From Paramecium tetraurelia (lineage: Eukaryota), in assembly GCA_000165425.1 (NCBI GenBank), contig CT868074.1:434001-498000 (forward strand): a DNA stretch of 64,000 bases. The letters run 5' to 3'. The position numbers and the translations under genes are program-made. Positions 4,528 through 56,400 of the stretch are shown here, piece after piece. Below the pieces are notes generated by a model, which made no database searches, was not told the DNA's origin, and saw only the letters and a program-made list of their open reading frames with translations. Each line of letters opens with the position of its first letter. The stretch's first letter is position 1.

Positions 4528-4906
4528 CTTTTATTTATTAATAAGATGCTACAATCAATTAAATGTATTCAAAATAAAACGATTAGAATTCGTCATATCA
4601 AATAATGCTTATAATTAAATACGCATCAAATTTAATATCAGTGTTGCAGAATTTTTTCAATATTTATTTTTAAATTACTGGAAATCTAATTCGTATATAA
4701 TATTAGAAATTTAAATTAAAATAGTTGATGTTGAAATTCAATTATTCGAATTTGTTTCCTTAAATTTCAAACTTCTATACTAATTAGATAACCAATTTGA
4801 AGTAAACTTATGATATCATAGTTATTTTATGTAAATAACAAGATTAAGGTACTTACTGTAAAAGAAGTGAAATTTCTAAATATTGAAATAAATATAAATT
4901 AAATCA

Positions 4907-18407: not shown

Positions 18408-18450
18408 AATTAATAAAATTTAGTTTAAATTTATATATATAATAAAGAAT

Positions 18451-19196
18451 ATGAGTCAAACAATAAGAAGAACAAAATTTCGAATTAAGGATGTAATTGA
18501 TAGCAATCTCAATAATCAAGAGCAATCCGCTTAGAAAGCTATATAGTCTACATATATCAAACAAAACGTAGATGACTTCAATTCTCTAAAATAAACTTTG
18601 GAAGATCGCAAATTAACATTTATAAAATTTGCATTTCAATAGCAGGAACTAATAGAAGATCGAAATTTGGGTCCAGTTCTCACAGGATTGTCCAGACACC
18701 AGAATATTGGGTCGATGTCAGTTAGTGAATTGATACCAAAATCTTAAATCCACACTTATCTGCTGTAGGCGTAGTAGGACAGACCGAAGAGAGTGTTGAA
18801 ACGATTTGCTCATTGGGAGTGGGACAAGGATTAAGGTCGAGATAAGAATCCAATGAGTTATTAGTTCACATAGAGAAATGAAGCTGAGATAAAATCAAGA
18901 TTAAAAAAAAAGGATGGGGAAATTAGTTTGAGGAAGAGGATCCTGTAGAAATGGTAGAAACATTTACCCAGCTTGACAGGACTGAATGAATTTGGAAAAC
19001 AATTTACAATGGATCATTCTTCATTGAAAAAGCCTTTTTCATTAAGTCCTTCTCCGAAGCAAGAGTCATATCGTCAAATTACAAATTGGTTGCAGGAATT
19101 GGAGGAGTTGAAACTCGACAATGAGAAAGTGAAGAAGTATAAAGTGATTAAATTAGAAAATTGGAAAGGACATTGCAGAGTTTACATAGAACATGA
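18451..19196 (+). CDS. Hypothetical protein
   Basis: Long open frame in code 6 from ATG 18451; a 20-nt intron (19137-19156) gives ..KKLERTLQSLHRT-TGA. Confidence 0.6.
19137..19156 (+). other. 20-nt spliceosomal intron
   Basis: GTATAAAGTGATTAAATTAG; its removal terminates the gene before the convergent TMP gene. Confidence 0.55.
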
Positions 19197-19234
19197 CTAA
19201 GTTGGTGTTTATTTTTTGAAGAATTAAATTTATA

Positions 19235-20305
19235 TCAAGCTGATGATCTCTCTTAGAGATAAACCTTAACGTTGGATAACTTGGTAGCTAAGATCTCCTC
19301 GACTTATCTGATGATGGAGATTTCTAATTATCTGTGTTCAGAGTCTTCAGCATATTGAGTTCTCCATGAATCGCATTCGGCTTCCTTTTATTCCTTTCCT
19401 GATGAGGCAGCGTTCAATTCGTCGGTGGCATCTTCCTTTCTCTTCTTTTATAAGTCCAAAGCTTATTAGTTGTCTTGGAGTTATCTTTCAGAGTCTTCTC
19501 TGGCGGCACTCAAGGATTCTCTTTATGAGGCGATTTCGACGACCAAAGCTTCGAAGTCTAATTAGGCTTAGATTTCGGTTTATCTGGCATCTTCAAGGGC
19601 TTCAGCCAATTAATTGCTGACTTCACCTAATTTTCCGAGGACGTTGTTCAATTGTTCAGCTGAGAAGGTTGAGGCAACTTACATAAGAGCAAGGATTGGG
19701 TTGGATGCACCAATCTTGTTTAATTAGGTCAAGGCAGCCAAGACTTCTTAATCTGGTTGGATTGAGCTCAACTTTTAGATGATGACTTCAACAGCCTCAA
19801 TGACGTTTTCGGTTTCATTCTCGAATCTGATGAAACTTTCAGCATCTTCAGCTCTTTATTCTCTGATTTGGGTTTCTTATTCGTTCAAGATGTCTAATTG
19901 GACTTATTTGTTTTCAACATCTTAGGTTAATTATTCAACCTTGGCACTGAGGGTTTAGATTTCTTAGGTTGATTCGGTGATTTCGTTGGAAGCGAAGTCA
20001 ATTCTTCTGTTGTATTAGTAGATTTCTGTTTCGCAATCAACTTCATCTTAAGCGTGCTTTTAGTCAGCTTCTTATTAGTTGAGGATGAGGTTTTCTCTCA
20101 ATTATTGTAACATTTTGGCAATATCTCCCAATGGGGCCTTGTTGTTGTATTAGAGAGCAATTGTGTCTAACAATTTTCTTCCTAATTCGTGTTCTTCCAT
20201 GGCTTCCAATTGTGTGAAAACTGCCTTGCTTGGATCGTTGGATCTCTTAACAAAGACAGCTTGTGTGAGTGTCAATCCCAAAAGAGCAATAAGAATCAAT
20301 TTCAT
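19235..20305 (-). CDS. Trichocyst matrix protein precursor (intact, intronless)
   Basis: Signal peptide MKLILIALLGLTLTQA, LGRKLLDTIALQ propeptide motif, two acidic heptad regions, strong C-ending codon bias; frame checked throughout. Confidence 0.88.
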
Positions 20306-20356
20306 ATTTAATTTATGTTTCACATCAAACTATTATTCCTTTTTACAATCACACTA

Positions 20357-20365
20357 TTCGTTTTT
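20357..20365. promoter_or_regulatory. Candidate shared secretory-gene element TTCGTTTTT
   Basis: 52-60 nt upstream of the TMP ATG at 20305; same 11-mer TATTCGTTTTT as upstream of the T1-like TMP gene. Confidence 0.5.
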
Positions 20366-20905
20366 ACTAAATTATTTAATTTCTTTTATTTAACATTTAA
20401 TCTCATCAGATCATAAATAACTATTTCTAACATTCTCAAACCAATTCCAATATTAGATACTAATCCAATTTCTTAATAAGTTAAACATTGTAGTTATGCA
20501 TGAAAAATAAAAAAAATATCTTCTTATTTTAAATAAAAAACCTTTTTAATTGATGAAAAGTGTTATTCTAATTAACTCCATTAAGGATTAACAGAATCAG
20601 AAACTCAATATATGAAGAGAAAAATTATTTAAATAAATCTTTTCTATGGATTATTTCCTTAAATTTAGAATAAGTTTAAGACTGTTAATATCATAATAGT
20701 CTTAAATATTTTAAAAAAAATATTACTATTTTGAATTATTGAATTCTGCTATAGTCTGGATTTATTTGAACAAAATTTTAAATGAATTAGATTATTAAAC
20801 AATGAATTTAAATTATTTATTCGATTATTAGTATACTAATACATAAATTTATGATTGGTTGCTATTATAATATATGATTATTATATATTTTTATAATATA
20901 CATTT

Positions 20906-21512
20906 TCACTTAGTCAAATCTTTCCTCTTGTTAAGTATGGCTTGTCTCATTTTGGCTACATCTTTTTCCCCAGGGTATTCTCCATCTTTCAAAGCAATGT
21001 TGGATGCTATCTTATCCCAAGAGTTTTTCTTTGGTAGCATGAATAACACAATACATATTCGCTCTTATTTTGAGACCTGAGTTCTTAAGCCTGTTGATTT
21101 GCAGTCTTTCGTGCCTCAATGTCTTTTTTCAATTCCCTTCATATACAATATACATATAGATATACGTTTAGAACTGAAGTAAATATTGTTAACCCTTCTC
21201 CTTTCTTTATTATTTTTAAATTCTTTCTTCCTAATCTTTCTCCCTTACAAGTTTGATTCTTTCTTCTTCTAACTCTCTTAATTTTTCTCTTCTCTTTTGT
21301 TATTCTGCACTCTAAATAGGAATTAGTCTGCCATTAATACCACTAAAGTAACTCCAGCATTAGGTGCAATAGGGATTTCAAATGGTTATCTGGCTTAATT
21401 AAGAATTCCAAAGTACCATACCTGCATCATTAAACATTAATGGTTGAGCTGCAATTTCAGGCTCTACATATGTCTCAATTGTGCCAGCTGGATCATCGAA
21501 AAATTCGTCCAT
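20906..21512 (-). CDS. Clathrin light chain
   Basis: Acidic N-terminus, charged helix, C-terminal WDKIASNIALKDGEYPGEKDVAKMRQAIL typical of CLC; four tiny introns. Confidence 0.75.
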
Positions 21513-21641
21513 TTTATAATTTAATAAATAATTTATTGGAAAACAAAAAAAATGTAATTGGTTTTTTGAATGATTATTCGAGTACTAAAATCTGAAAATA
21601 ATATTGGTATCCTGATTAATTTTTGCATTATATGTAAATCC

Positions 21642-22751
21642 TCATTTTCCAAGATACAATGCATCCATACAAGATTTACTGGATTCAATTCTAAATCTTT
21701 TACCCTCGAACTCTTCCTTTCCATATAGAGTGAACACAGCATCTTTGGGTAATTTGATACTTTTAATTTATCCATTGTAATCTAACTTAGCTTTATTATC
21801 ACAAATCTTGACCTCTTATCCTTGATAATCACAATCACTATATAAATAAGCACAATTTTAATCATAATATTTAACTTCTTGATTACCAATATAAAATCCA
21901 TAAAAGCTAAGTGATTTAATGGTTGATTCGTCCCCTAATTATATATATTTATAATTTACAAGTTCCAAATTCAACTTTGATTTGATTGTCATCATTCTCC
22001 TATTCTTCATTTACTTCTATTCTAATGTGATCGCTTAAGGATGTAAATCCTGAAATACCCATCAATTACACAAAATCTACAATGTCATTTGGGATTTCAT
22101 ATGAAGAGACCAATATCTTTTATGCGTCTTTAGAAGTTGAAAACCATGTGTGATCATCAGAATCTACAATGATTCCCAAATCATCAGTCTTGAAACTGTT
22201 CTCGAAGTTGGATATAAGAAGACAAAGCTTGAATTCTTTGGCACCACTTGCTGCAATTTTTACAATGTCTTTATTTAATTCGACTATTTCCTGATTGAAT
22301 TATTTCTTGTCTTAAAAGGTGGCTCCAACCAAATACGAATTAACTAGAGGAGTTGTATCACTATCATAATTGAATAGAGGCAATTAGATTTCTGATTCTT
22401 ATGACTTAACATATTCAATGTGAACTAAAGGATTATCAGTGGCCATCCAATTATATGAGATTTAATCAATATGATCTCCTTTAACTCTTATGGTGAAACC
22501 TCGTTTAATTTTAGCTTAGTACCTTATTAATTAACATTCAAAATTTCACTCATGAATGAAGAACCACTCATATCCAATAAACTAATCGAATAAGCAATCT
22601 TCGGAGTTCTTGAGAATTGTTTTTTGAATTTGATATTTATATCTACATCTTTATTAATGATATTTTGAATTGAAACTCCTGTCTCTGATTCGTATAGAAA
22701 ATGCTCAGCCTAACACAAATAAATCAAACCTAGAATGATTAACCAATTCAT
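21642..22751 (-). CDS. Secreted protein with H-type-lectin-like repeats and C-terminal beta/gamma-crystallin domain
   Basis: Signal peptide MNWLIILGLIYLCQA; IKFKKQFSRTPKIAYSISLLD..GFTIRV..ISYNWMA and FGTWDESTIKSL (H-lectin); CAYLYSDCDYQG..IKSIKLP..TLYGKEEFEG (crystallin). Introns of 23 and 25 nt; 353 aa. Confidence 0.78.
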
Positions 22752-22752
22752 T

Positions 22753-22761
22753 TCCGTTTTT
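22753..22761. promoter_or_regulatory. Candidate shared secretory-gene element TCCGTTTTT
   Basis: Immediately upstream of the lectin/crystallin gene ATG, inside a 44-bp intergenic gap. Confidence 0.45.
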
Positions 22762-22795
22762 AATAATATATATTATATAATTATACACTAGTTTA

Positions 22796-24925
22796 TCATA
22801 TCAATATTTTAGATGTCAGGTCTTTAATCACCTATCCTTTCTATAACTAATAATCCTCCATGTAATACACTACTTAATCTAAAGTAATATCAAAATGAGT
22901 TGTGAATAAAATAGTGCTATTTTATTTGAGTAGGTATTTTAAAATCGAATAAGCCAAGGAATGACCATCAATAGAACTAGTTCCTCTTCCCAATTCATCA
23001 ATCAACAATAAGCTATTTTGGGTATCAATCATTCTTCGAACCTCTTGCATTTCCACATAAAATGTACTTTCTCTTATTGTATCATATGCACCCATTCTAC
23101 AATGTATTTCATTAAATGTCTTAAACTCCATCTATTAACATGGGACATAACACCCCAACATAGCCAATATCACTAGTAGCCCAACTGATCTTAGAATTGT
23201 TGATTTTCCTGCCCCATTATATCCTGTTAAAACGATACATTTTTCAATCGTCAGATTATTAGGAACACAATTTTAGATTAAAGGGTGGCGGAAATCTCTT
23301 AAAACTAATTAGTTTTAAGTTGATAAAGTGGGGAGACACTTGTGTTAATCATTTTCTAAATATTTGGACATAGCTATTAAGACATCCAGATCGCTAATTT
23401 AATTGATTATTTCTTAAAAATACTCTTTATGTTTCAATATATTCTCAATTACTTATTAATAGAATAACTGAATAAATATTTTTAATTAATCCAAAAGTTT
23501 AATGTGTTATTATTATTTCTTTTAAAGAAATTGAGTAGTGTATTTTCTATAACCCTTTCTTTTATTTGAAAATAATAACTATTAAGGCGTCTTATATTCT
23601 TCAGGCATTTCTATTTCAAATGCTTAATATGTAATTTTAGGGTCATTCTCATAAAGTTGACTCTTTATTCTTAAGTATTCATCATTAGCCTCATCTTCCA
23701 CTTTTTCTAAGCTTTCTAATATCTAATTATACTAAGTTCTTTCTTAATTTTGTGGTACTAAAACATCAAGATTTTCACCTTCCCACACAAACTCTTATGA
23801 AATCTTCTACAAGATATTATCATTTAGTTCTTAAAGGTTTCTTAGTTGTTCACTTTGATAATTTTATTTGTTAATATAAATCTTCTGTTTTAATTACACC
23901 AGAATATATTTTACATTATTTAGGAATTATTTCAATATTGAACTATCTTTTGGGGCATTAAACACTCTAGCCATTTAATGTTGCAAAGATCCAACCCTCT
24001 TAATTTCAGCTAAAAAACTGTCTCTGAAGACTTAGTGATTTCTCATATCCTATTATGCCAATTATCTGTCCATTATCCCATCGATTGGAATTTTTCTTAA
24101 CGTCATTTACAATTTTCTTTAACCCTCTTTAGTTACTGGCTAAATCAAGGGTTTGAAGAATAACTATTTTATTGCATTATCAGATATTAAACAGAATTTT
24201 GAAAACAATGGAGAATTATCAATAAAGGTGATCTATGATATTCCATTAATAAACCTTTCTTTAAAGAATATCTCTAACTATTCGAAAGCACTATCACCTT
24301 TAGCTGCATTTTTTATAGCCAAGGTCTTTATTTTTTCATTTGTTATTATTTCAGTAATCTTTATAAAATTTAAATTCTCATCACTCGTTTTATAGGCTAC
24401 TTTGCTGATGGTATCTAGCACAATGGCTTCATTCTTATATAGTGAAACCAAATAATTAGTTTCAATATTTTATAAATTCTCTCCCAATATACCAAAACCC
24501 AATAGTCCCTTGCTATAGATTCCAGTTATAAAGCGATCTCTTAATTAGTTTTATGTCATTTGAAATAAAGATTATTCACAAAAAACTATTTTTCGATCTG
24601 TTTACATAATTAATGTATGAACATGTTCTATTACAGATGCTTCATTTAATCCTATCATATAATTTGGAATTTTCCATTATAAATCAATGTACCTTCTAAT
24701 AAAGTGAGCATCCTCTGAATAGGCCAAAAAAAAACTGCCCCTCTATAATAATACGAGATCTTATTGATAGTCCTTTTTGATTTCTTAGTATTGAGCTTCC
24801 AAAGGTGTTAGATCAGAGATAGGATTAGACTTCGATTTAGATTTCGACTTTATTAATTGTTCACAATCAAATAGAGCATTATCAGAAAGTTCAACATCAA
24901 AGCAATTTAACTTTTTAGTTTTCAT
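22796..24925 (-). CDS. Compact, divergent MutS-family protein (MSH3/6-like domain I)
   Basis: TPLEAQYQEIKKDY..RGSFFLAYSEDA (domain I); FRHPL, LTGYNGAGKST, STFYVEM, LIDELGRGTS, LFTTHF (ATPase). Confidence 0.88.
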
Positions 24926-25091
24926 AAAACCTAATTATAATTAATATAGAAAATGAATATTGTGTCTTGGATTATATTATCTAATATGAGTAACCAAAAC
25001 ATTAGTTTCTTGTTTTGCCTTATCAACCTATGATTATCAAAACTAATTCATCAAAAGTTTATAATATTTAATTTGAATAGTAATTTTGAGC

Positions 25092-25304
25092 ATGAGTTCA
25101 AAAAATTAATAATAGACTTATTCATAGATGTATTCAGAAGAGAAGGTAGTGACTCTATCTAACATGGAAGTTAAGTGGTTAAACTTATTAAAGTAAATTT
25201 CAAATGATGACTTGGATATGTTGAGGAGATAATTTGAAAAATAAAAATAATCATTAAAGGATATTGAAGAAAAAAATGAATAACAAACAATAGAAGAAAA
25301 GTGA
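25092..25304 (+). CDS. Small hypothetical protein (70 aa), 5' end uncertain
   Basis: Short open frame MSSKNQQQ..KWLNLLKQISNDDLDML..EEK-TGA with coding-like composition. Confidence 0.35.
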
Positions 25305-25787
25305 TAGAATAAAAAACCTTCTTATCTCATAGCTTTGTGATTTTAATTCATCATTTAATTTTATATATATAAACCTTGTTTTTCAGCTTCAAAGAATAAT
25401 ATAAGGGATTAAATGATTATATACTTTTTTAATTCTTTTATTACTTAAATTTTAGAAGATAAAGCCATCTTTTTTAATTTTAAGTTTTTAGTTAGTATAA
25501 GATTAAAAGTTACATATAAATTTTGAAACAAATTGAACTCTATATTATGTCATTTTATTTAGAGATGATTCATAATAATAATATCTATAATAGATTTATA
25601 ATGATTGAGTTTAACTTATTGAATTTTATGTTGTTCAGGAATAGTTGAATTTTTTGCAATAAATTAATTTCCTATCTCTCGCCATTTAAGAGAATCATAA
25701 CGATTATTTATAAAGGAATAAGAAACTATTAAAAAATGTAAATATTGAACTTAGAACTATTGTTCATAATTTATTTTTTTTAATAAA

Positions 25788-26976
25788 TCAATTTCTTTTG
25801 CTGATGAATTGAGCGGTGGTTGATAATTTCTCGCTGATGTGTTCTTAAAGTCTATCAACGATTTCATTTTAAGCAGCTCTAAAGAAGGATATTATTGATG
25901 ATACCTTTCAGCAGTTTAGGTTTTCATAGATTTCTGATTAGACTGCATACCATGCTTATTATCCAGCAAGTCTCTCTTCACTGTTTTCTAATTCCAAGGT
26001 GTGGAATTCGATCCATGATTAAGCATCTTCAATGGTATCCTTTTATTCTTAGATTTAGACTTCCAATTAAGCTTTTCTTTCAACCAATCTGGTGTGTTCA
26101 TTGCTCAAATGAACGCTGAATTCAGCCCAGTGTGCAGCTTATCTGTCTTCAACGTCCTTTATAATTGGATTAATTAAATACAGTCTTGGTAGCCTTTTCT
26201 GAGACTAATTATTATCTGATTTCGCTCAAATAATTAAGCAATCTTGGTCAAAGCCTTTTGGTTGACTCCGTGAGTGGCTAATTCGGTAAGAGCAATAACG
26301 ACTGGCTAAGATGGATAATAGAAATAAAGAATTTACTTGTAAGAGTTGGCTGTGTGATGTGTTGTCGGTGAGTCTCTTGTGAACTGTTTCATACTTTGAT
26401 TTAACTTAGACAAATGAAGCACCTAAGCTCAAATGTTGGATGAGTTTGGCAGCATCATCAATAGCTTCAATAACATCATCGATGGCAGCAACCTTGGCAA
26501 CGAAGGTTTCGTGTTATTAGTTTCTTGTGGCTTCTTCTCTAGCATAAGTTTATTCATTTGTTGCAATGTCTGAAATTGTAACTCTGATGTCTTCTTCAGA
26601 AACAGCCAAAGCTTCGATTGTGTCATCTCTCAATTAAGTGTTGGATGAGATTTGATTTTAGTGATACAAGATTTCCTTTTCCAAATCCTCGACGATCTAT
26701 TACATTGTTAAATATTCTTACTCTGTTGTTTGTGGTTGTATCAACTTCAAAAGTGTGATCATGGTCATTTTAATCTTATTATAATCCAGCAGCAACACCA
26801 TTCAATAACATATTAACTTCATTGGCTGGTGTTTAAGCTTATAAGTGTGCCTTGATTGCTGACAACACAACATTTCCAAATGGATTAGAATCAATCTAAG
26901 CCAAGCTTGCATGTGTATCTACAAACTTGGAAGCTGCAAGAGCAAGAACCAATGTCAAGATGGCTAGTTTTTGCAT
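25788..26976 (-). CDS. Trichocyst matrix protein precursor, T4-like; two apparent +1 frameshifts
   Basis: Signal peptide, NPFGNVVLSAI, DLEKEILYHQNQI, RLVERKAQLE, IVDRLQEHISEKLS; four introns; extra bases in runs at 26228-26230 and 25921-25924. Confidence 0.85.
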
Positions 26977-26995
26977 ATATTTAATTTAATGTTTT

Positions 26996-27004
26996 AAAAA
27001 CGGA
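26996..27004. promoter_or_regulatory. Candidate shared secretory-gene element AAAAACGGA
   Basis: 20-28 nt upstream of the TMP ATG at 26976. Confidence 0.5.
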
Positions 27005-27651
27005 TCGAAAAATGCTTATGTATGTAATTAATTTATAAATATTTATCCCCATTTTCTTATAATTTTCCTATAATCATATATATCAACTTTTCATATTATT
27101 CAATTAATCCAATTTTTCTACAATCTCATCCCCTACCTCTCTCTTTTTGCATAATTTATAGTAATTTTTATATATCCTCAATCCTCATCATTACCAAATT
27201 TTTATTAAAATAGAATAATTAATTTATTATTTCTCTAGATATTCTTAATTCTAAACAAAGACCAGATAGTAGCATATTTTTATAATTCCCCTCCCATTAT
27301 TTTCATCTTACTTAACTAAATCCTTCTCTTTAGTTAATCAAACTAATCATCTATGACAGATACACTATTAATTAGATTCTTAGATTTCTTATTATTTACT
27401 TTTGAGTCAATTCATTATTTTATTCTATGATTTCTTGAAAAAAACTAGAAATATTAATTAATCATATTATAATATGGCCAGATAATTGCTATATAATTTT
27501 AATGAATTTATATTATATAGTCTTTATTAGAAATAGCTAGACTGATTTCTAGTATGAAAGACAAAAGGTGAGATTGCTAGTGGTTTATGAGGTTGTTTTA
27601 ATTTATTAATTAAAATCTTGCAAATATTCAAAAAATAATTTAATTTTTCTA

Positions 27652-28145
27652 ATGTCAGCTCCATTTTATACAGTGAAAGTATGCTCATGATATTAATTAA
27701 AGGATGTACCAGCTTAAGATTTCATTCGCGGTTATGCAGAATACTTGAAAAAAAATAACAAGATCAAGATTCCAGAGTGGGCTTCAATTGTTAAGACAGG
27801 TCTTGGAAAAGAAACCTCACCAATTGACTAAGATTGGATGTATGTTAGAGCTGCAGCACTTGCTCGTAAAATTTATGTTAGAGGCCATTGGGTATTAATA
27901 ATTAATTAAAACTTCAGGGTGTTGGAAATCTGACTCATATGTTTGGTTCAGTTAATGATAATGGCAAACACGAATCTGGATCTGGAAAAGTCATTAGATA
28001 TTTACTCTAATAATTGGAAACTATTAAAGTATTGAAGAAAGATAACAAATCTCTTTTAAAGAAGGGATCAAGAATTGTAACCAAAGAGGGATAATAAGAT
28101 TTAAATAGAATTGCAACTCAAGTTGCCTTAGCTGCCAGAAAATGA
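27652..28145 (+). CDS. RPS19: 40S ribosomal protein S19 (eS19)
   Basis: TVKDVPAQDFI, KIPEWASIVKTG, DWMYVRAAALARKIY, GQQDLNRIA; introns at 27679-27702 and ~27892-27917. Confidence 0.95.
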
Positions 28146-28241
28146 TTTATAATACATCACAGAAGTACATTATTAAACATACAGAATTATAATCATAAAT
28201 ATATATTTAGATAAAATCAAAATTTTCTTCAGATTATTCAT

Positions 28242-29223
28242 TCAAAAAAATTTTGATTCCAAAATAAGCTTAAGTTTTATTTTTAAATATTATATTTCTT
28301 CTTTTGCATGCATATTCGAAATCTCTTTTAGCCATGAATCACCATCATTAGATTTAAATGATCCTTCTAAAATTTTATTGCATCACAATATCTATCAATT
28401 CTATTGCTCTCCATTCAATTTGCTCATAATTAGATACTCAATCTAAATTAAGGATGTTTCACTTGAAATTTATATTTATGTCCATATTAATATTCTTTTA
28501 ATTTAATATAATTATCAATATTGTTCAATACTAATGACTTGATTTTAAGATTCTAGTAAGGGATTATTGTAAGTCTGCTAATTCATGATTGTGTCTATAA
28601 ATGTATATGCTTATTCTTACCCAACAGTAAATGCACCTATTTGAGTAGGTGGGATTGCATTCAATTTTGCACTCAATAGTCTTATATCACTTTGATTTCC
28701 ACCAAAACCTAATCTGCCCTGATTGTTACCCAAAAATACAGACGATTTGGAGGATAAATGATGAGGTTGGAAACTTGAATGTGATAATTCATTATTGAAT
28801 CGAGTGAATTTAGTATTTTAGATCTAAAGCTCTAAACCCAATTTTGAATCCCAATTTTTGAATCTATCCAGTCTTACTTTAGTCTTTTAGGGAGATTCAA
28901 TATAATTTGTATTGTGTTAAATATGAGAAGAATTTTTGTGAATGCTACTAAATACAATTTGTGAGGGTGTTAAAGGGCTATTATAATAATGATAAATACT
29001 GGTATTCCCCAACTACTACTCCTTGTAAGCCTTTGCTTTATTTTGGTGATGAGTCTCTGAATATTCTCATTCTGACTGGAGACATATTAGTTGACTAACT
29101 GGTTTTAGTGGTATAGCTAGACTCTCCAATTTTACTAATGGCAGTTGATAACATTCCAAGTTAGCTTTTTTTTGGTTTATTAACTTTGCTGGATTCCAAG
29201 CTGGCAAAAGATTGAGCGAACAT
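28242..29223 (-). CDS. Hypothetical Ser-rich protein
   Basis: ATG 29223 (MFAQSFASLES..), short GT..AG intron(s), 3' frame ends ..LESKFF-TGA. Confidence 0.55.
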
Positions 29224-30128
29224 AATTTTATTTATGTGTAATAAAATTTAAGTTTCCCCTTTTATATGAGTCAAATATTATTAACAATTAAAGTCTAGAA
29301 AAAACTTATAAGATGCATACTTTATCATGATATTAAATCACAGTTTGGATCCAATGAATTTTAAATATACAGTTATAAAGGACAAAGTGTCAAGTAGAAT
29401 TTTGTACTAATAATCCTATCGTTATTTGGACAATATTTAAATATCAAATGCTGGCAGAAGTTAATTAAATGATTTTGTGAGTTCACCAATTTTAAATATG
29501 ATTGATTGTTAATTTTAATGACAATTCAATTCTAAAACAAGATTTGCAATCAAAAATTTACATTTCATAATCTTATCCATTTATGGTTTTTTTGAATTTT
29601 TAATCACAAAAATAAGCATCTTTACTTTAATCCATAATAAATGTTCAAAATTATCGATTGAGATTTTTAATAGACTTAAATGTTGTTTTAAGTTTTACAA
29701 TAAATTATGTGTTTAAAAAAATACACATTTGTTATTCATTTTTTTAACATTTACTATTAAATTTAAGCTTCTAATCGCAGGTCATATTAACAATTGAGCT
29801 ATAAGATACTAAGTTTTTTAATGTTGGTGATATATTTTAATCTTTAACAAGGGCAATAATGATTAAATATTTAAATCTTTGCTATTGAACAGTAACGTAA
29901 TATTGTATAGGGTTTAAACTAAAATGAATGATTGATGCATTTATTATTTCAAAATAAATAGTCAGATGATTCTATTATAAAATACTTAAAGTTACATTAA
30001 TACCAAAATAGTTAATGGTTCCAAACTAAAAACATAAATAAATATGATGGGGTGTTTTCTAGATGACTAGAGAATAGCAATAAATTTAAGATTCATTTTT
30101 TAAATTGAATATATTTGTATTATGGAAA

Positions 30129-31266
30129 TCATTTTCTTCCAAGGCTGGTTTATGAGGCTAAGGATCTGACTTAGTCTTTGAACAATTAGATGACAACATC
30201 GATGATAGCGTTTTCCTCTATAGATTATTGTGATAATTGGTACCGGCTCTTCTGACAGTTTCGGAGGCATAGAATTCTCTTTTCTCTTCCAAATCAGCGG
30301 TGGCTCCAGCAACGGCGTTCAAGGAATCTTTCCAGAGTTTAAGGGCCTTGGCTTATTAGGCAAGAACGGCTGGGAGTTGCTATAAAAATAATAAACATAT
30401 GATTGTACAGTTTCTAATTTCTCAACAAAGACCGGTTCTTCTTTCTTATTCTGAAGTCAACCAGGCAACTTCGGCATTAGTATCTGAAACGTATTTGGCA
30501 AGAAGCAAATGCCAAGCATGGATTTCTTATTCTTATAAGGGTAGCAAGAGTTGATTCTAATTCAACTTATAAATCTTATAAGATTTAGAGGACTTATTCT
30601 CCGGTTGTGCCGTCTCTCTTGACTTCAGCAAGTGATTAGAATTTTTAGAGGGCATCTTATTAGAAAAGATGGCTGTAAGCTGATAATTTATCGGCGATTG
30701 TTGAAGCCTTTTCAACAAGTTCGACTCCAGCATTGTTTGTGAGGAAACCAGCAACGTCTTGTGTCAAGAGTGTGACAACTCCGATGGCATCGGCGTGATC
30801 AGCAAGGGATTTAACAAAAAGTCCATTGGCCCAACATCTTTAGTCTTGGAGTTAATTGTTTCTTCTAACGATTTCAGCAAGTCTGGCTTCAGCCCAGGCC
30901 AACCATTAATATCCATCCTTAATGAATTAATTGTTTTGCTTACTCTGACTTAAGCTTCAACATCTGTTCTGACAGCACCAAGTCTTTCCCATTATTGTTT
31001 GTTGAGTGCGGCAACGTTAGTCAAATCACCAATGACTTGGGAAAAGATTTCTACACATTAAAATAAAATTTACCTTCGTCTGTATTGTTCTTTTTGTCAG
31101 CAGCAGCTTACACATTCACATTCTCTGTTTTCAAATCTCTTAAGAGATTGTAAACGGATTCAACGGCATCATTTCCTCTTGTGCCTGTTTGGAGAAGCAC
31201 GGCGAATTTGTTTGTGTCAAGTGCAAACACAGCTGCTACGAGGCAAATCACAACGAATGTTTTCAT
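30129..31266 (-). CDS. Trichocyst matrix protein precursor; cluster of apparent insertion frameshifts
   Basis: Signal peptide MKTFVVICLVAAVFA, DAVESVYNLLRDLK, heptad regions, four introns; five extra bases between 30423 and 30541. Confidence 0.8.
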
Positions 31267-31285
31267 ATTTATTTTTAATAATGCC

Positions 31286-31294
31286 AAAAACGGA
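31286..31294. promoter_or_regulatory. Candidate shared secretory-gene element AAAAACGGA
   Basis: 20-28 nt upstream of the TMP ATG at 31266, the same spacing as the copy at 26996. Confidence 0.5.
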
Positions 31295-31970
31295 ATAAAA
31301 TTTCTTCGTTTTAATGTTGGTATATATAATTGTTTTTATAATTCACACCTTAAAGGACTATGGAAATGTTTCACTTCATATAATCTTATTACCCCATTAT
31401 TATTCATTCCATCTTTATTAATCCATTCTCACAATTTATTTGACTCAACTAATTCAAAATTAAACAATCCATAATAGAAAAGATACTGTTACCATTAATA
31501 TAAGAATCTATCAATTTTTAATGAAAATTTGTATATCTTCAGGATCTAAATAAGAATATCATATAATCTATGGACCTCCCAATATCATAATTGAACTTAT
31601 CATAGTACTTTTTTTCATTAATTTCTCTTTGAAATATTAAAAATCTTATGTATTAGGTTTTAATTAAAAAAACATAATAGATACCTCATCCAGCTATCTG
31701 GCTGATATTAAATTTAATTAAAATAATCCGCCTATTAAATGATTGATTCAATATCAAAAATTTTAGAGTTAAAAACTATATATATGTATATTTAAATTAA
31801 ATAGAGATAAGAAATAAATCTAAAAATTTAATATTTTTGCAGATGTTGATAAAAAATTTAAATTTAATATATTTTGGAAAAACTTAAGTTGTATTTTAGA
31901 ATTTTATAAAATCCAAAATTTTAAGTGATATTTTGAAATGAATTGAAATAAAATTAATATATATATTAAG

Positions 31971-33578
31971 ATGATTATGTGCACTCTTTGTGAGGACTAT
32001 TTAATAAATGATATTGTTATTCTTATACAATGTGGACATCTTTATCATATAGATTGCTTGAACAGACATAACGAATAAAATTATACAAAAATATGCCTAA
32101 ATTGCTAAAATGGGACTGACTCCATTTAAATTCAATTTTTAATACATTAACCTGATTATATTGCTGAATAGTAGTTAAACTAATTAAAGATTAAGAGTAA
32201 ATCTTTTTTATCAAAAATTGAATAAGAGATAGAGCTTTTAATTAAAAATTATAAATTCCTCTTGTTAGACTATTACATCATTGTAAGTGATCTGTAATAA
32301 CTCACCTCAAATAAAAATAGGCAAATCAATTATCAAATATTAAGCTCCAAGAACAAAGCAGATAGGATTATAGATGATTAAGATTTATTTTTATCCTTCC
32401 AATAATAAAGTAATTGGAATAAAAAAGAATAAGATTACTATTAAAGTATGTAAGATAAATATAATAAAATATATCTTAAGAAGATAGACTATTAGGCAAT
32501 TAGTAACTATATAGATAATATTGAAAATTAAAATGATATTGTTATTTATTTCAAAGATATTTGTTTAATACAAAATCAAGATGAAAATTCATATGATAAA
32601 AATTTAAGGTGCTTTTTATTTTAGATTTTTTAAATTCAGAATAAAGTTAAGAATGTTGAAGAAAAATTAACTCATATTCAAAACATTATAAAGTAATAAA
32701 CTTGTATCCATAAACTATGCACACTTTGTTCTGATAAATAGACCACATAAATTGCAATTAGAATGAGTTGTGGGCATATTTATCATATAAAATGTTTGGA
32801 AATGGCAATCAAACAAACTTATTTTTGTCTTAATTGTTTAAATCACTTCCATACTTCTATTGTTCAATTTTAGGTTTAAGATTCGGAATAAATCAAAATA
32901 ATATAAAATAAAGAATCCTTCAAATGGACTTTAAAAGATTTAGAAATAAGAAAAATATAATTATAACTTGAAATATCTAAACATGAAAAAATTGATAGGG
33001 ATTATGCTAAAGTTATAGAGAATTTATGTGAAAAGATTAAAGAATTGATGAAAACATCAAAAGATTCAAAACAAGTTAATGAAATCCCTTAAAATCAATA
33101 AGATTTAAATATAGATATAATAATGCAAAACAATCCAAACTTTGATCATATATCGAATGAAATAATGTGCCTGAATTCATTATTTGAAGATGAAAACAGA
33201 GTTCCTCAAACATATGATAACGTATTCTACTTTGTAGATATTTGTTATCCATAGAATCATTGTTTAAATGCATTAGATTAAAATTTATAAAATCTAATAA
33301 CAAAAAGAAAAAAATTGAATGAGAGATGGGAGCTTTTAGAGGAATAGATGCAGATGACTTTAGATCGATTAGTAGACAGGTATAAATGGAAATAGGAGTA
33401 ATAAAATAAAAGGCTTGGAATCAGAAGAAAGCCACCTTAAACAGAAACTAAAAGTTTAAATGAAAGAATGAATAATTTTCTAGGATTTCCAAACAATATG
33501 AAATAATACTTTAACAAATTTTAATAGAAATAAAGTGATAGTTCTGATGAATATTCATAAACAGATAATTTTTTTTGA
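31971..33578 (+). CDS. Double RING-finger/coiled-coil protein (internal duplication)
   Basis: CTLC..CGHLYHIDC..CLNC and CTLC..CGHIYHIKC..CLNC, each followed by a coiled coil; open for 535 aa. Confidence 0.8.
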
Positions 33579-34120
33579 TATTATCATATTATTTTTAATT
33601 AATTAAAAGAGACTCGTCATGATTCACCATTGCATAACTTTATAACTTTTAATCAATTAACTTATATATTTATGAATGCCTTTACTATATTCTTAATAAA
33701 TGCATTTCACTAAAACAAATTGATTTATCTTAAGATTAAAATTCTTTTTGCGAATTTCATTTAATTCATTATGCAATATACAATGACATTATATGAAATC
33801 TCTCTTGCAATTACTTCATATTTTTAAGCTGTATATTTAAAACATGATCAGCAATGATTTTGAAGGTAAAGAACTGTTCATTAAATTGAGAGCAGTATTT
33901 TTCACTTACAATAAAAATTCTTTTCTAATTAGATGTTTAGTTATTGAGTAAACCTTCTATTACATTTAATCACCTATTTTTAAAAGTTGTTAATTGAGCA
34001 ATTTGGTTTCAAAAGGAACTTAAGTAATAATAAATCAATAGGAATCGAGTAATAACATAAAGTGAGACCTCTACTATTTTGAAATGCTATTTTACATTAA
34101 ATTAAATAAAAATATATAAA

Positions 34121-34740
34121 ATGGAATACCCAGATGGGTACCTACTACGTAAGAATGTAACTAAGCAAGCTCTATTTTCTTGGGACCCTAAACGTACAAG
34201 TACTAAATTGAAATTGTGCCAAGACTAATTATAAGTGCTAGCTACAGATGGATCTGGATTTAAAAGTGCCATTGGTGATTAGGTATTAAGATTGCTACTT
34301 TAAGGAATTCACTCCAGGTTATAAATATTACTATGAGATTAAAATCTTGAAGGGTAGTTTAATTAAGCTTGGCGTATGCACCAAGAATGGGCTGTTCTAA
34401 GATGTAAACTCAATGCTCCACCTAAGCAAGCTTTCAGTGATAACGAAGAAGGATGGGCAATCTATAATGGTGAACTGAGACACAATTCTAATTCCACTGG
34501 CAATAAGTATGGCAAATAATACAAGAAGGGAGACATTATAGGAGTTATGCTTAATATGATTGATGTACAAACTAACTAATTCAATTTTAAAAGGGCTAGT
34601 TATCTTTTTCAATAAACGGAGAGAATCAGGGAATTGCCTTTGAATGCAAAGAGCTTAAAGAAGTTCCATTATATGCTGCCATAGCTCCAATTTATAAGGA
34701 AGATGGCATCGAATTGCTAATGGCAGTCAGGGAAGATTGA
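34121..34740 (+). CDS. SPRY/B30.2-domain protein
   Basis: KYYYEIKI..IKLGV, GWAIYNG, YGKQYKKGDIIGVML, LSFSINGENQGIAF, LYAAI; three tiny introns. Confidence 0.85.
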
Positions 34741-35603
34741 TTCTTAATTAATTTAATCATTATTCAGGGAAATCACACCATAATCCTATTAGCAAATTTA
34801 TTCTTTTTGCTTTTAAATACCAATCAAAATCTAAAATTTAAAAATATTTATAAGTTTTATAGAGAATCGCTTAGATTTAAAATACTGTGATAATTTAATT
34901 TCATCATACTTATGGATTATTATTGAGAAATGCTCAATTAAACTGATAAAGTATACCCTCATATTATACCATGTGAAATATATTTGATCATTTCCAATCC
35001 TTCTTTATTTTTTAAGTCAAGATTCATTTAAGATCTGTTTAAGAGTTCTTAGTTTATTTTGGTTTTGGAACTTAAATTAAATCGCTAAAGTCAGTTTTCT
35101 TATTTCTTAATTGTAGTGATGTGGTTTATTTTGTTTCTTAAAATTGCTATGGTTATTATTATTATTATATTAATTTGGTTGAAACTACTCATTTCATTTT
35201 ATTATGAAATATTTCTTTGTATCTTAAAATGCGGGTATGATAAATTCAACTAAATACAACTCTCTTTTCCTATGGATATCAATTCAAATCATTTTAATAA
35301 TTAATATTTCAATTCTAATAATAAATTAAAATATAATTTGAAATAAGTATATTCCCCCATTAGGTTCCATAATTTTAACCATTTGAATTGGTTTTGTTGC
35401 CATAATTGTAATATTTTGTTTTATTTATAATATATCTAATTAAACTATGAACATTTAATAAGATTAAGTTTATTATTAATACAGTTTCAACTTAGGTATG
35501 AAACTAGAGGTTTTATGAATATTTCGTTTCTATTTGAAAAACTAAAAATAAACCATTTAAAGAGCAACTTTTTTAATGGCTTGTAAACTCATTTAATAAA
35601 TTA

Positions 35604-36305
35604 ATGTTTCCAAATCTAAATCCATCATCTAAATCAAGAGGTATATGATAACCTAGTCGAGGACAGCCCGTTAGAGTTATATTCAAGAAGAGAAGGCTAG
35701 ACAAATAGATCGAGAGAATCAATTGTTATTTCAAAAAATATTAGGCATTACAATGAAACAAAGAAACAGTTCAACAACTCCAACAAAAACAACATTAAAT
35801 TATAAAACCAGAAAAGACTTTCAATAGAAGATAATGGATGAAAATTAGAAACTGTTCACTAGAATAAAATAACAAACATCGTATTACAAAATTTAGAAAT
35901 CTTAAACAAAATCTTTATCTAAATAAAGAGCAAATTCATCTGTAAATATTTACAAATATATAAAATAGTATTTGCCAAGTAAGAAACTACAAGAATTATA
36001 TTAGAGTAAATTAGAGTAGGGTGGATTAACTTATAAAATAAGAGTTATCATAGATGGACAGTATAGAAATTTAATTTTTTTAGATTATTTAAAATAATGG
36101 CAACGACAGAAGAACAATCTTATACAAGAGTGTTAGAAATGATGAAGAGTGATGGTAATATAGGGTGTAAATTTGAATAGGAATTCTATTGTTGAAGAAT
36201 GTGTTTCATAATGATTTTCAAAAATTGATAGAGAGTTTATAAATTTCAGATAAGATTACAATCAAAGGGATATAATTAATAGAGACTCACGGTAAATTTG
36301 GTTGA
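35604..36305 (+). CDS. CFAP97/hemingway-like domain protein
   Basis: EEKARQIDRENQLLFQKI..LNYKTRKDFQQKIMDENQKLFTRI pattern; several tiny introns. Confidence 0.55.
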
Positions 36306-36323
36306 TAAATATATATACAAAAA

Positions 36324-36782
36324 TCAATTTTGTTCATCACTATCAGTTTCCCATTCATCATCATTGTTTTCAGGTCCAGTGATTGGTCTGAAATATTCTC
36401 GTTCTCCTCTTTCGTGAAGTTCACCCTACATTTCCTCATACATTTATTCATATATTTGTTTTTCTAATTCGTCTTCCTCATTATGAGAATCATCATCCTC
36501 ATTATGAGAATCCTCATCAACCCAAGACAATTGCTCATCTTAATGGAAATGCAGATTCCCTTATTCGTCCATAAAGCATTCTGTTTTTAATTGAATTTTC
36601 TTATTTTGCTCATATTCTACGTTTAGATCTGGATGAGAATCATCTTTATAAATGAGATCCGCCATGGTTCTATATGAAAAACTAGCAAGAATTTCTTAGG
36701 CTTGCTCCTTGGAGAGTTGATTATAGGGCTTTTTGAGATTAGTCGAAAGTTATGGTTTATCTCTTTTGAACCACTTGAACAT
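36324..36782 (-). CDS. Small acidic hypothetical protein (152 aa)
   Basis: Intronless open frame MFKWFKRD..DSHNEDDDSHNEED..WETDSDEQN-TGA. Confidence 0.65.
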
Positions 36783-36824
36783 TAAAATTATTTTAAGGCT
36801 AAGAATTATTAAAATTTTTATAAT

Positions 36825-38246
36825 ATGTAGGGATGCAATAGATCGTAAAAAATCGCCATCTGTACAGTTGGTTTGCCAGCTCGAGGAAAAACGTATATTT
36901 CTCGGAAATTGAATCGTTATTTTAATTGGTTGGGCTACAAGAGTAGAGTATTTATAAATGGGAATTACAGAAGAGAAATATGCGGTACGGAATGCAATTC
37001 ACAATTTTTTGATCCCCACAATGAGACAGTACAATGAACAAAAATAAATATAGGCTTAAAAAGCAAGGAGTGATTGTGCAAAAATGGCATTACAAGATTT
37101 AATATAATTTCTTAAGAATGGAGGAGATGTAGGAATACTTGACGGAACAAACATCACAAGGGAAAGAAGACTCTAGATTGAGAGTGATTTGAAACAGTCT
37201 TTTAATGGAATTCAAACTCTGTGGATCGAATCCATATGTAATGATTCCAAAGTGATTTAAAATAATATCCGACTGACTAAAATCAACAACCCAGATTACT
37301 GCAATGTGAACTCTGATGAGGCTACAATAGATTTCCTGAATAGAATCAAGATGTACGAGCAAATCTATGAAACTATAACAGACGATGAGAATCTCTCATA
37401 CATCAAGACTATTAACGTCGGAGCAGACGTACAAAACATGTTTCCATGCTTAGATTATAGTTCATTAAGTCTATGGCTTTCTGTTGTCCAAGATCGTATC
37501 CTTTATTATGAATCTCCACACCTATCCGAGACCAATCTACTTATCCAGACATGGAGAGAGCCAGTACAATGTTGATGATAGAGTAGGAGGGGATTCCGAT
37601 TTATCTGAGTTAGGCGAGATGTATGCAGACAAGTTGGCAGATTTTTTCTTTAAAGAGTTCCCAACTAAAGAAACGAAAAATGAAATTATTTTCTTTACAT
37701 CCACAATGCGAAGAGCTATTCATACATCTGATGTTGTGGCTAGTAAATTAGATATTTAACCATTGCAATTAAAGACATTAGATGAAATCAATGTAGGAAT
37801 ATGTGATGGAATGACATATACTGAAATTGCATAGAAATTTCCCAGTGATTTTTAAGTATTCATTTTATAATATTATCACTTATTAGGAAAGGAAAATCAA
37901 TAAATTAGGTTATAGATATCCAAGAGGAGAATCATATTTAGATTTAATTAGCAGAATCGAACCAGTGATATTTGAGATTGAAAGATCTAGACAACCAGTT
38001 ATGATAATAGCTCATTAAGCAATTTTAAGATGTTTATATGCTTACTTTCATCAAAATGAGATACCAGAAGTACCCACTCTGGATATACCATTGCATTGTG
38101 TAATAAAATTGACTCCGGCTGCCTACTTTTGCGATGAAAAAAGAGTGCTGATCAACCCTTAAACTGGGGAAATCTCAATTAAGGAAGAATATGTATAAGA
38201 ATTTGTGAGATCAAAGAGCAAATAGAAGAGCTTTATTGATTTATGA
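36825..38246 (+). CDS. Bifunctional 6-phosphofructo-2-kinase/fructose-2,6-bisphosphatase
   Basis: VGLPARGKT, GNYRR, DGTN, LSRHGES, GGDSDLS, YRYPRGESYLDL, IAHQA motifs; three introns. Confidence 0.93.
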
Positions 38247-38324
38247 TTAGATTCATCAAATGTTAATGGAGTGATCATCATTCATAATAATATATTTTAT
38301 TTATATATTATGTGAAAATAAATA

Positions 38325-38333
38325 TTCGTTTTT
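38325..38333. promoter_or_regulatory. Candidate shared secretory-gene element TTCGTTTTT
   Basis: 55-63 nt upstream of the T1-like TMP ATG at 38388. Confidence 0.5.
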
Positions 38334-38387
38334 CGATTTTTAGCACAAAATAATCCTCAGACGTATGTCAATAATAATTTACAATAA

Positions 38388-39603
38388 ATGTTAAAACTAA
38401 CTCTTTGTGTATTGTTGGTGCTTGGTGCAACAGCCATCAACGTCTAATCCTCCATCTGGACTAGTCGTGACTAAAAGGCTCTTGCTTAGATTCACTCATC
38501 TGGTTGGGGCAAGTTCATTTTGAATTATGCCGAACTCCACCATGTCAACCGGAGGTATTCTCTCTGAACTCAACAGCGAAATTGAAAAACTCGTAAACCC
38601 ATATCACTAATAATTAAGGTTGGTGAATTAGAAGAGGAATTAGCTGGAGTCCATCACGAATATAACAGAAGAACTGACGTTCATAACAGAGAAGTAGCAA
38701 GACTTGAATAAGAAATCTAAGACAAGGAAAGAGGTTACCAATAGTTTCTGATCCCTTTTAGAACTCTTCCAACGCTCACGATTTCTATGATAATGTCCTC
38801 ATCCCATAAAGAGATAGATTTGCTGCCTAACTTGAATAATTATAAGAAAACACTCGCCTAAAACAGAAGAACACTCCAAGAATCCACAGTCTAAAGAGAA
38901 AACGATCACGAGACCTTTGAAGCTTAAGTTGTCGAACACAACGATGCTATTGGTGCCATCGATGAATGCCTCTAATTATTGAGCACAATCGCTACCCCAT
39001 CTCTTGCTTAAATCAAGAAGGTTTAAAAGAACCTCACCAAAATCCAAAACTCTTTGAAAAAGCACAACTAATTCCAAATCTTTGTCAAAGTCCTTTTGGA
39101 AATCACAGTCGAATCCAACTTCGCCGATCAAGGTGCTCTCAGAGACGTATTCTATTTTCTCATTCCTAGATTATTGTCGCCTTCAACAACTTGAGAGTTG
39201 AATTAGTTGATTCTCTCAACTAAATCACAGCCGATGAAGCTTAAGCTGTTACCGACTTCAACGCCCAAGTTGTCTAATTGAACTAAGAACACGCTGAATT
39301 CTAAAGAGCTGTCGTTGTTAAGAATGCTGAAATCGAAGCCAACGCAAGTACGATTAACATATCTAATCCATTTAGCCAAGATTGAATAAACCCTTGACCT
39401 CATCGATGAACTCGATGCTGATTTAGCAACCCTCAACGGATAATTATAAGCTGAAAACGATGACTTTGCCTTTGCCACCGATGTCTACAATTCAACCGTT
39501 GCAGAATACAACAAAGAAATCAATGCTGCCAACCAAGCCTTAGAATTGCTCACATTAACCAAGATTTTAAGATTATGTTAAATCATAACTCAAAGGAGCA
39601 TGA
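38388..39603 (+). CDS. Trichocyst matrix protein precursor, T1 family; four apparent +1 frameshifts
   Basis: [52 protein letters not shown] and DYVKSQLKGA match T1-type TMPs as I recall them; four introns; extra bases at ~38541, 38770, 38853, 39555. Confidence 0.88.
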
Positions 39604-40857
39604 TCTATTCAATAATATCATTCAAAAGTTATCACCCATTCTAGCAAATTTTTATTTTTTCTATTCTCTTAGACTTACATAATCTCAAATGAATATCTTC
39701 CACTTGTAATCAAATTTTGGATTGACATCTCATTATCTTATTTTATCTATAAAAATTTCACAAAACTCTGATTTTTTAATCAGATGACTAATTTTTAGAT
39801 TTTAGATATTACTTAATTTAGCATAGTACCAAATTAAGAAAGATGTTTGAAATATGTTGATTGATCAAACTCTTTAGCTATTAAAAACCTTCTCTATTTT
39901 GCAATTAATTTTATACATTATTTTTTATAGACCTAATTTATCATATCAGGAGAGTTACAATTTAGCAAAGTACAATTAGGGTCATTTATGCCTGTTAACG
40001 AAATAATCGAACAATTTAATAGCTTATATAACTCAATATGAGAGGTCCAAGAAAATCCAAATATATTCCATAGTTATTAATATTCGAGTATTGCAGCAAT
40101 TTGATTGTGATCATTCTGATAAGCTAAATCGACTAATTTATCATTTCTAAATAAAGATGATCTTTTTGATTAAATAAATCCTGTGAAAATAAGCATTTTT
40201 ACTTTACTACCAGAAAATAGGATCTTAAGACTATATAAACATTGGTTACCTTTGGATTAGATTTCTAAATTTAAAGTACATCGTGAATTAGAATTACGAT
40301 ATCCTTATTGAAAAATTGTTTATAGCAAACAACATTTTTTATTACTGATAAAAATAGGGACTGTATACACTAGTAATAGACTTAAAAAATTATAAAAATG
40401 GTGCAATTCAAGCGAATTCAGTAATTAACATTAGATTTGTTAATTCTAATCTGAAAATAGTAAATATCTTGCTACTTCTGGACCTAAATCTAGATAGCTT
40501 TAAATAAGAATCTTTAAAAATTTATGAATAAATTGTATTGTTTATTTTCTATCCATAAATTTTATTTTATGTCCAAGCATAGCCGTTTTATATAATAGTT
40601 ATGTGGAGTAAGACTAATGTTTGTATTGATATAATTTATTAATTAAATTTGAAAGGATATGAATATATGTCTTCATATATATGTGTTGTAAGGTGAAAGT
40701 ATCTAATCCCAAGATTGAATTAATAATTTGTTTAAGATTACAGCAGTTATTACTCTTGTTCATTTATTATTTTAATTCCTAATTATAAATTTTAATAAAT
40801 TTTTCGTTTAATTTTGAAGTATTTTGTTATTATATAAAATAATAATTTGTTATCAAG

Positions 40858-55964: not shown

Positions 55965-56400
55965 ATGAAGGGTTAAGCTGATTAAAAGAAGGAAGCAACA
56001 AAAACAGTCAAGAAAGTTAAGACAACCAACAAAAGCGCACCAGTGAGGTAGAGTTGAAATACTAAATGTAGATTATGGGTGAAGGCTGCATTCACAGGTT
56101 TCAGAAGATCAAAGGTTTAATAAAATGAGAATTAAGCATTGCTCAAAATTCAACATGTGGAAGATGTTGCTTCAAGCAGATTCTATTGGGGAAAGAGAGT
56201 TGCATACATTTATAAGGCCCATTCACTTAAGAACAACACAAAATTCAGAGTATGAAATTGATTTAATTCAGACTATTTGGGGTCGTATTAGTAGATCACA
56301 TGGATCAAACGGAGTTGTGATTGCTCGTTTTGGCAGAAATCTCCCACCAAGAGCTATTGGATCAACCCTTAGAGTATTCCTCTATCCCAACAGAGCTTGA
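55965..56400 (+). CDS. RPL35A: 60S ribosomal protein L35a (eL33)
   Basis: RLWVKAAFTGFRRS, FYWGKRVAYIYK, IWGRISRSHGSNGVV..NLPPRAIG..LYP; two introns. Confidence 0.95.

Follow-up and report, generated by a model that had tools for sequence, protein, structure and literature searches.

A nine-nucleotide word, TYCGTTTTT, stands shortly before the start codons of five genes for signal-peptide proteins in a 64-kb stretch of Paramecium tetraurelia DNA (contig CT868074.1, positions 434,001 to 498,000; the whole stretch is called the window below, and positions are counted from its first letter). We think it likely that this word, with the core YCGTTTT (AAAACGR on the other strand), acts in either orientation as a promoter element of genes for trichocyst cargo, namely for trichocyst matrix proteins (TMPs) and for a lectin/crystallin protein, and that a putative factor binds it. 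As far as it can be delimited here, the carrier set consists of matrix protein genes together with the lectin/crystallin gene, all in very short Paramecium promoters, where a second, inverted copy of the word is often present. An earlier note on the same DNA had drawn attention to the word and had proposed that it is the cis-element of a secretory-granule biogenesis regulon.

One word before five signal-peptide genes

TYCGTTTTT was searched for on both strands over the whole window, and six matches were found. Five of them sit 1–54 nt before the ATGs of five signal-peptide genes (genes A to D and the lectin/crystallin gene, Table 1), three in sense and two in antisense orientation relative to the gene; the start codons were read by eye from the translations. 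The sixth match, at 44743 on the plus strand, falls in the coding frame of the gene at 44063–45115 on the minus strand, so that every other gene start in the window is without the exact 9-mer. The search therefore confirmed the five coordinates given in the earlier note, as well as its observations that the sole further copy lies inside a coding sequence and that other gene starts lack the word. The note had also placed the copies within about 65 nt of an ATG, and all five fall within 63 nt. The pair that it had described as identically spaced is made up of copies 3 and 4, each 19 nt from its ATG, and the longer word that it had seen in opposite gene-relative orientation is TATTCGTTTTT, common to sites 1 and 5.

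The window is AT-rich (25–33% GC). CG is scarce in it, as had been claimed: 571 CG occur in the 64 kb, and the 70-nt upstream stretches of the five genes hold 1 to 3 each. The shorter string CGTTTTT is found ten times in the window, and five of these occurrences are the promoter copies. Some promoters contain more than the single word. A further CG word, TTTTTCGA, lies immediately 5′ of copy 3, and CGATTTTT follows immediately after copy 5. Upstream of copy 4, a near copy in the opposite orientation forms an inverted pair with it, and the arrangement at this site reads AAAACGAA-N13-TCCGTTTTT.

Two of the sites are further defined by their surroundings. Copy 2 lies in an intergenic gap of 44 nt: the upstream MutS-like gene (22799–25036, minus strand) stops at a TGA at 22796–22798, only 44 nt before the ATG at 22751, and the promoter of the lectin/crystallin gene must therefore overlap the 3′ end of the MutS-like gene. 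At the other site, an out-of-frame ATG (38365–38367) is present 23 nt before the start codon of gene D. Transcription of gene D thus probably begins past 38367, in which case copy 5 would precede the start of transcription by 30 nt or more.

A weaker relative of the motif, ATCGTTTTA, was seen at 4576–4582 on the minus strand, in sense orientation and 21 nt before the ATG (4554) of an ABC-transporter gene. Its spacing is near that of copies 3 and 4, and it may be there by chance.

The five-fold occurrence might itself be a compositional coincidence in AT-rich intergenic DNA that was noticed after the fact. Runs of T are frequent in these spacers, the five promoters are themselves the source of the motif definition, and the excess over the window as a whole is modest (six copies observed against 1.79 expected from whole-window shuffles, with 1 of 100 shuffles reaching six). 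A post hoc control speaks against coincidence. Here, sets of five AT-rich 70-nt stretches were examined on both strands for a 9-mer, one of its positions being allowed to be two-fold, that is common to all five. TYCGTTTTT is the only such 9-mer common to the five real upstream 70-mers (for two of which the ATGs were set at 22750 and 31265, one base off, leaving the result unaffected). By comparison, a comparable 9-mer was shared in 8 of 3000 random sets drawn from the window and in 13 of 3000 sets generated by a first-order Markov model, and in neither case did any contain CG. The sharing of TYCGTTTTT by the five promoters exceeds chance. Since, in addition, none of 500 simulations matched the counts in the metagenome loci described below, we consider coincidence an extremely improbable explanation.

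TMP-A homologues in metagenome contigs

Contigs from JGI metagenomes were scanned with an alignment of 25 TMP-A proteins. This gave 78 loci, numbered below with the prefix L, whose DNA had not been used to define the motif; profile scans of genome contigs and of viral contigs with the TMP alignment found no relative. Enrichment was assessed at nine distinct loci with at least 100 nt of upstream sequence (L062 being a duplicate of L061), using the 200 nt before the ATG, 1,642 nt in total. The exact 9-mer occurs seven times in these upstream stretches, at five of the nine loci, and ten times in the 108,681 nt elsewhere, corresponding to densities of 4.26 and 0.092 per kb, respectively. For YCGTTTTT the counts are 12 upstream, at eight of the nine loci, versus 12 elsewhere. 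When the upstream stretches were simulated with a Markov model, 0 of 500 simulations reached the count of the exact 9-mer and 0 of 500 that of YCGTTTTT. The motif is over-represented upstream of this gene set relative to background.

The same loci allowed homologous promoters to be compared. Across the aligned upstream regions of L069, L070, L071 and L074, which are AT-rich and have a mean column identity of 63%, the longest invariant block is ATCCGTTTTT; the motif is conserved in homologous promoters amid diverging flanks. Copies are commonly multiple and inverted. L071 and L074 contain a perfect palindrome, CGTTTTTAATTAAAAACG, with TCCGTTTTT 12–14 nt later, and L070 contains AAAACGAA, followed after 8 nt by TCCGTTTT. 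L061 and L063 have the arrangement AAACGGA-N8-TYCGTTT together with AAAAACGAT, and L078 carries the variant copies ATCGTTTTT and ACCGTTTTT. In L071 (1594–1781) and L074 (1496–1649), which come from environmental ciliates, the motif cluster is situated within the gap of 152–186 nt between a TMP-A homologue and a divergently oriented homologue of gene B, so that a single cluster could act on both cargo genes.

Proteins of the L069 and L070 type are 37–39% identical to the product of gene A, roughly as distant from it as the Ichthyophthirius homologue (36%), and they probably derive from outside the genus Paramecium. That the motif is kept in homologues this distant points to a control that arose before the genus did.

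These data also bear on common descent, namely the idea that the word is a relic of one ancestral TMP promoter that has not yet decayed. Descent would account for the distant relationship among the TMP-type products of genes A, B and D, for the clustering of TMP genes in the window and for their pairing in L071 and L074. Against this, the flanks of the five window promoters cannot be aligned, as the earlier note had remarked for four of them, and the upstream 70-mers share no second 9-mer; the copies differ in orientation; the lectin/crystallin gene encodes an unrelated protein; and the motif persists at 37–57% protein identity to gene A while its flanks diverge. A tblastn search of the window with gene A returned no match other than gene A itself. 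Because the gene families that carry the word are unrelated or barely related, it is not a leftover of promoter duplication, and we regard the relic explanation as very improbable.

Most of the 78 loci are contigs of about 1.1 kb that end near the coding sequence and resemble assembled mRNAs. There are 36 loci with at least 12 nt before a candidate ATG, and 30 of these are without the motif (upstream lengths 13 to 137 nt, mostly below 75 nt; L063, among the 30, had been assigned a wrong ATG that was corrected later). Its absence from such transcript-like 5′ ends is what a position ahead of the transcription start would lead one to expect.

The same observation bears on the proposal that the motif acts in RNA, as an element of the 5′ untranslated region (5′UTR) for translation, stability or endoplasmic reticulum targeting of cargo mRNAs. 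At 1 nt (copy 2) and 19 nt (copies 3 and 4) from the ATG, three of the window copies could fall inside transcripts. However, at the two genes with an antisense copy the RNA would bear another word, and in the relatives the motif also lies 59–170 nt before the ATG, within gaps shared by divergent genes. An RNA element was rejected on the antisense copies, the motif-less transcript-like contigs and the distances in relatives, and we find it hardly credible.

Overall, the distance from motif to ATG in the relatives ranges from 14 nt (L050) to about 170 nt. In L016, for which only 76 nt of upstream sequence are available, the stretch begins with an antisense copy. Two exact copies were seen downstream of TMP homologues: one in L033 (1108–1116), 30 nt past the stop codon and followed by an ATG 17 nt later, which maybe belongs to the promoter of a neighbouring gene, and one in L054 (1453–1461), about 280 nt past the stop codon.

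A probable factor site and its relation to known elements

Upstream enrichment, conservation amid diverged flanks, occurrence in both orientations, multiple and inverted copies and absence from related transcript ends would together form the signature of a site for a sequence-specific factor, probably a dimeric one. Under this interpretation, the element would be recognised by a sequence-specific DNA-binding protein, perhaps in dimeric form, whose binding would drive strong, coordinated transcription of the trichocyst cargo genes. That would make the element an obvious candidate for the site that raises transcription when trichocysts need replacing. The regulatory role proposed in the earlier note is supported in part: enrichment and conservation at TMP homologues, both orientations, and absence from the ribosomal protein S19e and acid phosphatase genes of the window argue for a real cis-element tied to trichocyst cargo genes, and its connection with TMP induction after exocytosis is one that we infer. 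As a class-level statement in the available part of the source, 118 of 176 TMP genes are up-regulated after massive exocytosis (PMC3091696). Among the genes of the window, none was recognised as a non-cargo member of the pathway, such as one for sorting, processing or docking.

Several observations weigh against a promoter element of this kind. For P. tetraurelia, median lengths of 19 nt for the 5′UTR and 44 nt for the 3′UTR are given in the accessible text of PMC5485702. With a 5′UTR of that median length, copies 3 and 4 would touch the transcription start site, whereas copy 2, only 1 nt before the ATG, would be part of the transcript; moreover, the 44-nt gap in which copy 2 lies is the size that the 3′UTR of the upstream gene would fill. 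Copies 2, 3 and 4 do not fit a classic upstream factor site well. Among the metagenome loci, L026 has no copy of the motif despite sufficient upstream sequence, and L026, L061, L063 and L078 are without the exact 9-mer. The loci are also less independent than their number implies: with L069, L070, L071 and L074 forming one group of close relatives and L061 and L063 another, the number of lineages comes down to about five. The base on which specificity was judged comprises the 64-kb window and 116 kb of contigs. Finally, an exact, antisense TTCGTTTTT lies in L063 (3248–3256) 5 nt before the ATG of a 478-aa open reading frame without an obvious signal peptide, in a geometry that resembles that of copy 2.

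The copies close to the ATG could be accommodated if the motif were a core-promoter or start-proximal element, serving as initiator or in place of a TATA box at a class of genes with very strong transcription, one that positions RNA polymerase without any trichocyst-specific regulation. The identical 19-nt spacing at two window genes would suit such an element, as would the like spacings of 14 nt in L050 and 17 nt in L033 (before the downstream ATG), the median 5′UTR, which would place such copies at the start site, and the RNA depth, which is high or raised at all five genes. A general core-promoter element would be expected at most genes and at a fixed distance, whereas the window holds six copies in 64 kb, with ATG distances of 1 to 54 nt that widen to between 14 and about 170 nt in the relatives. 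Both orientations are found, inverted pairs and the presence of multiple copies in one promoter are features typically seen with factor sites, and all other gene starts in the window are without the exact 9-mer. The gene for ribosomal protein S19e is informative in this respect. It is located at about 27600–28300 on the plus strand, has introns and explains the high RNA depth at 27.3–28.7 kb, between genes B and C. It is highly expressed (RNA depth 8,773), yet a scan of the window detected no YCGTTTT near it, and a general high-expression element was rejected on this basis. We therefore think a start-proximal element unlikely and favour the trichocyst cargo promoter element.

Promoter motifs of co-regulated gene sets are a well-known kind of element, and Paramecium has one experimentally proven example. 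An 18-bp motif, AAAATCMTTdWAATAWTT, is present in the promoters of PGM-co-regulated genes of P. tetraurelia (Bazin-Gelis et al. 2023, PMC10711438). According to the available portion of that paper, mutation in a reporter showed that the motif is required for expression, inversion was tolerated, and 96 bp sufficed for a PGM reporter. The two motifs are alike in that each is a short motif from the same group of organisms, found in either orientation in promoters of less than 150 bp and enriched in a co-expressed set. They differ in sequence and in the genes served, which for the co-PGM motif are those of sexual development. The co-PGM motif also has a preferred position, with a peak at −50 to −60 relative to the start, whereas TYCGTTTTT varies in its spacing, and it has been tested experimentally, whereas TYCGTTTTT is known here from sequence alone. 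That the five promoters are simply co-PGM promoters was rejected, as no match to the co-PGM motif was found in them even with up to 2 mismatches.

Myb recognition elements have the core AACNG or YAACKG, are active in either orientation and lie near the start. Read on the other strand, the C-variant of the window motif is AAAAACGGA, which contains AACGG, and the five promoter copies give AACGG in three cases and AACGA in two. Unlike a Myb element, the T-variant AAAAACGAA (two of the five window copies) has no final G, and the conserved A/T run lies outside the Myb core. The Myb connection is a lead only.

Searches of full-text literature turned up no account of a promoter motif for trichocyst or mucocyst genes; subscription papers were outside this search, for example Galvani and Sperling 2000 (Eur J Biochem), which reportedly deals with the transcriptional induction of TMPs. 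The terms 'motif', 'upstream' and 'cis-regulatory' have 0 occurrences each in PMC3091696. Similarly, 'transcription factor' has 0 occurrences in the text of PMC3824020, and 'cis-regulatory' has 0 in the mucocyst literature searched.

The nearest parallel in function comes from Tetrahymena thermophila, whose mucocyst genes (GRL, GRT/IGR, SOR4, CTH3 and AP-3) are co-regulated (Briguglio et al. 2013, PMC3824020). In the part of that study available, crystallin-domain proteins are granule cargo in Tetrahymena, and homologues of these are expected to make up the trichocyst tip proteins (PMC3824020). The resemblance is that dense-core granule cargo, crystallin-domain cargo included, is transcribed together and induced when granules are resynthesised. 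Unlike the motif-bearing set, the Tetrahymena set is defined by expression profiles, and the accessible text names no cis-element or factor (PMC3824020).

These parallels allow a broader proposal, which we put forward tentatively and with some doubt. YCGTTTT/AAAACGR may be an ancient cis-regulatory code of dense-core granule (trichocyst or mucocyst) cargo genes across ciliate genera, read at inverted pairs by one dedicated factor, perhaps Myb-like, and forming the nuclear end-point of a pathway that senses emptied docking sites and re-synthesises granules. If this were true, a DNA pull-down with the motif would lead straight to the factor, and a genome scan would reveal the full regulon.

After discharge, a ciliate replaces thousands of secretory granules in a matter of hours. 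The available parts of the respective sources describe joint transcription of the granule genes for Paramecium (PMC3091696) as well as for Tetrahymena (PMC3824020), and no DNA element or factor responsible for it is named in the papers searched. A defined 9-bp word with a clear CG makes the control of this co-transcription testable, and a genome scan with the motif could list trichocyst genes, for example those for tip proteins.

The motif-bearing genes and their neighbours

Table 1 Motif copies and motif-bearing genes in the 64-kb window.
Feature	Position	Strand	Details
Motif copy 1, TTCGTTTTT	20357..20365	+	Antisense to gene A; 51 nt to ATG 20305 (minus gene, MKLILIALLG...)
Motif copy 2, TCCGTTTTT	22753..22761	+	Antisense; 1 nt to ATG 22751 (minus lectin/crystallin gene, MNWLIILGLIY...)
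Motif copy 3, TCCGTTTTT	26996..27004	-	Sense; 19 nt to ATG 26976 (minus gene B, MQKLAILTLV...)
Motif copy 4, TCCGTTTTT	31286..31294	-	Sense; 19 nt to ATG 31266 (minus gene C, MKTFVVICLV...)
Near copy, TTCGTTTTA	31304..31312	+	Opposite orientation, 9 nt upstream of copy 4; inverted pair with copy 4
Motif copy 5, TTCGTTTTT	38325..38333	+	Sense; 54 nt to ATG 38388 (plus gene D)
Gene A, trichocyst matrix protein, 356 aa, single exon, signal peptide	19235..20305	-	Open reading frame; 97% identical to a cluster that bears the name 'Trichocyst matrix protein'; family PF27870 (precomputed)
H-type lectin gene with signal peptide, weak beta/gamma-crystallin match	21645..22751	-	Pfam; 3′ end unmodelled
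Gene B, TMP-like secretory protein, several short introns	25911..26976	-	Rough model; 3′ end approximate
Gene C, signal-peptide protein, highly expressed	30150..31266	-	3′ end approximate; TMP label unconfirmed
Gene D, TMP-like secretory protein with introns	38388..39692	+	Approximate model

All five motif-bearing genes start with a typical signal peptide. Four of them had been called TMPs in the earlier note, and this assignment holds for A and, less firmly, for D and B. Gene A belongs with proteins of that name and has a homologue in Ichthyophthirius (36% identity). Gene D matches the TMP-A profile weakly (hhalign E 1.8e-4, probability 48%). Gene B is linked to the family through its mutual relationship with gene D (BLASTP E 4e-7) and through its homology to the divergent partner of the TMP-A homologues in the metagenome loci L071 and L074; it is also weakly related to gene A. 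The label is unconfirmed for gene C, which gave no significant profile match to the TMP-A family (hhalign of A against C, probability 3%) and whose relatives are Paramecium proteins, all 'uncharacterized'. The lectin/crystallin label of the gene starting at 22751 stands, with an H_lectin match at E 1.3e-8 and a weak Crystall match at E 4.4e-4, which is below the Pfam cut-off. From its predicted domains, this gene is a candidate for Grt-like trichocyst tip cargo.

RNA word depth, the pile-up of contigs from RNA runs and a crude measure to which paralogues contribute, was 7,500 to 87,000 on genes A, B, C and D, versus about 10–250 at most neighbours. Gene A reached 7,544 (bin 20000–20666) and gene D up to 64,739. 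For gene B the depth rose to 87,158, with an intron joint at 26305/26337. Over gene C it was 18,432–26,331, and in the bin just upstream (31339–32005) it was 0.43.

Within the window, a histidine acid phosphatase gene (His_Phos_2, 56262–57997, plus strand) that also encodes a signal peptide served as a negative control, and the window scan showed the motif to be absent from it.

Proteins encoded in the window are 97–99% identical to Paramecium proteins, and its long reading frames are open only if TAA and TAG are read as glutamine. These features mark it as macronuclear DNA from the aurelia group of Paramecium, in all likelihood P. tetraurelia. At its far end lies a gene for a Piezo-type channel (61688–64000, minus strand; Piezo_THU9_anchor E 4e-49, Piezo_cap E 7e-46), which runs past the end of the window.

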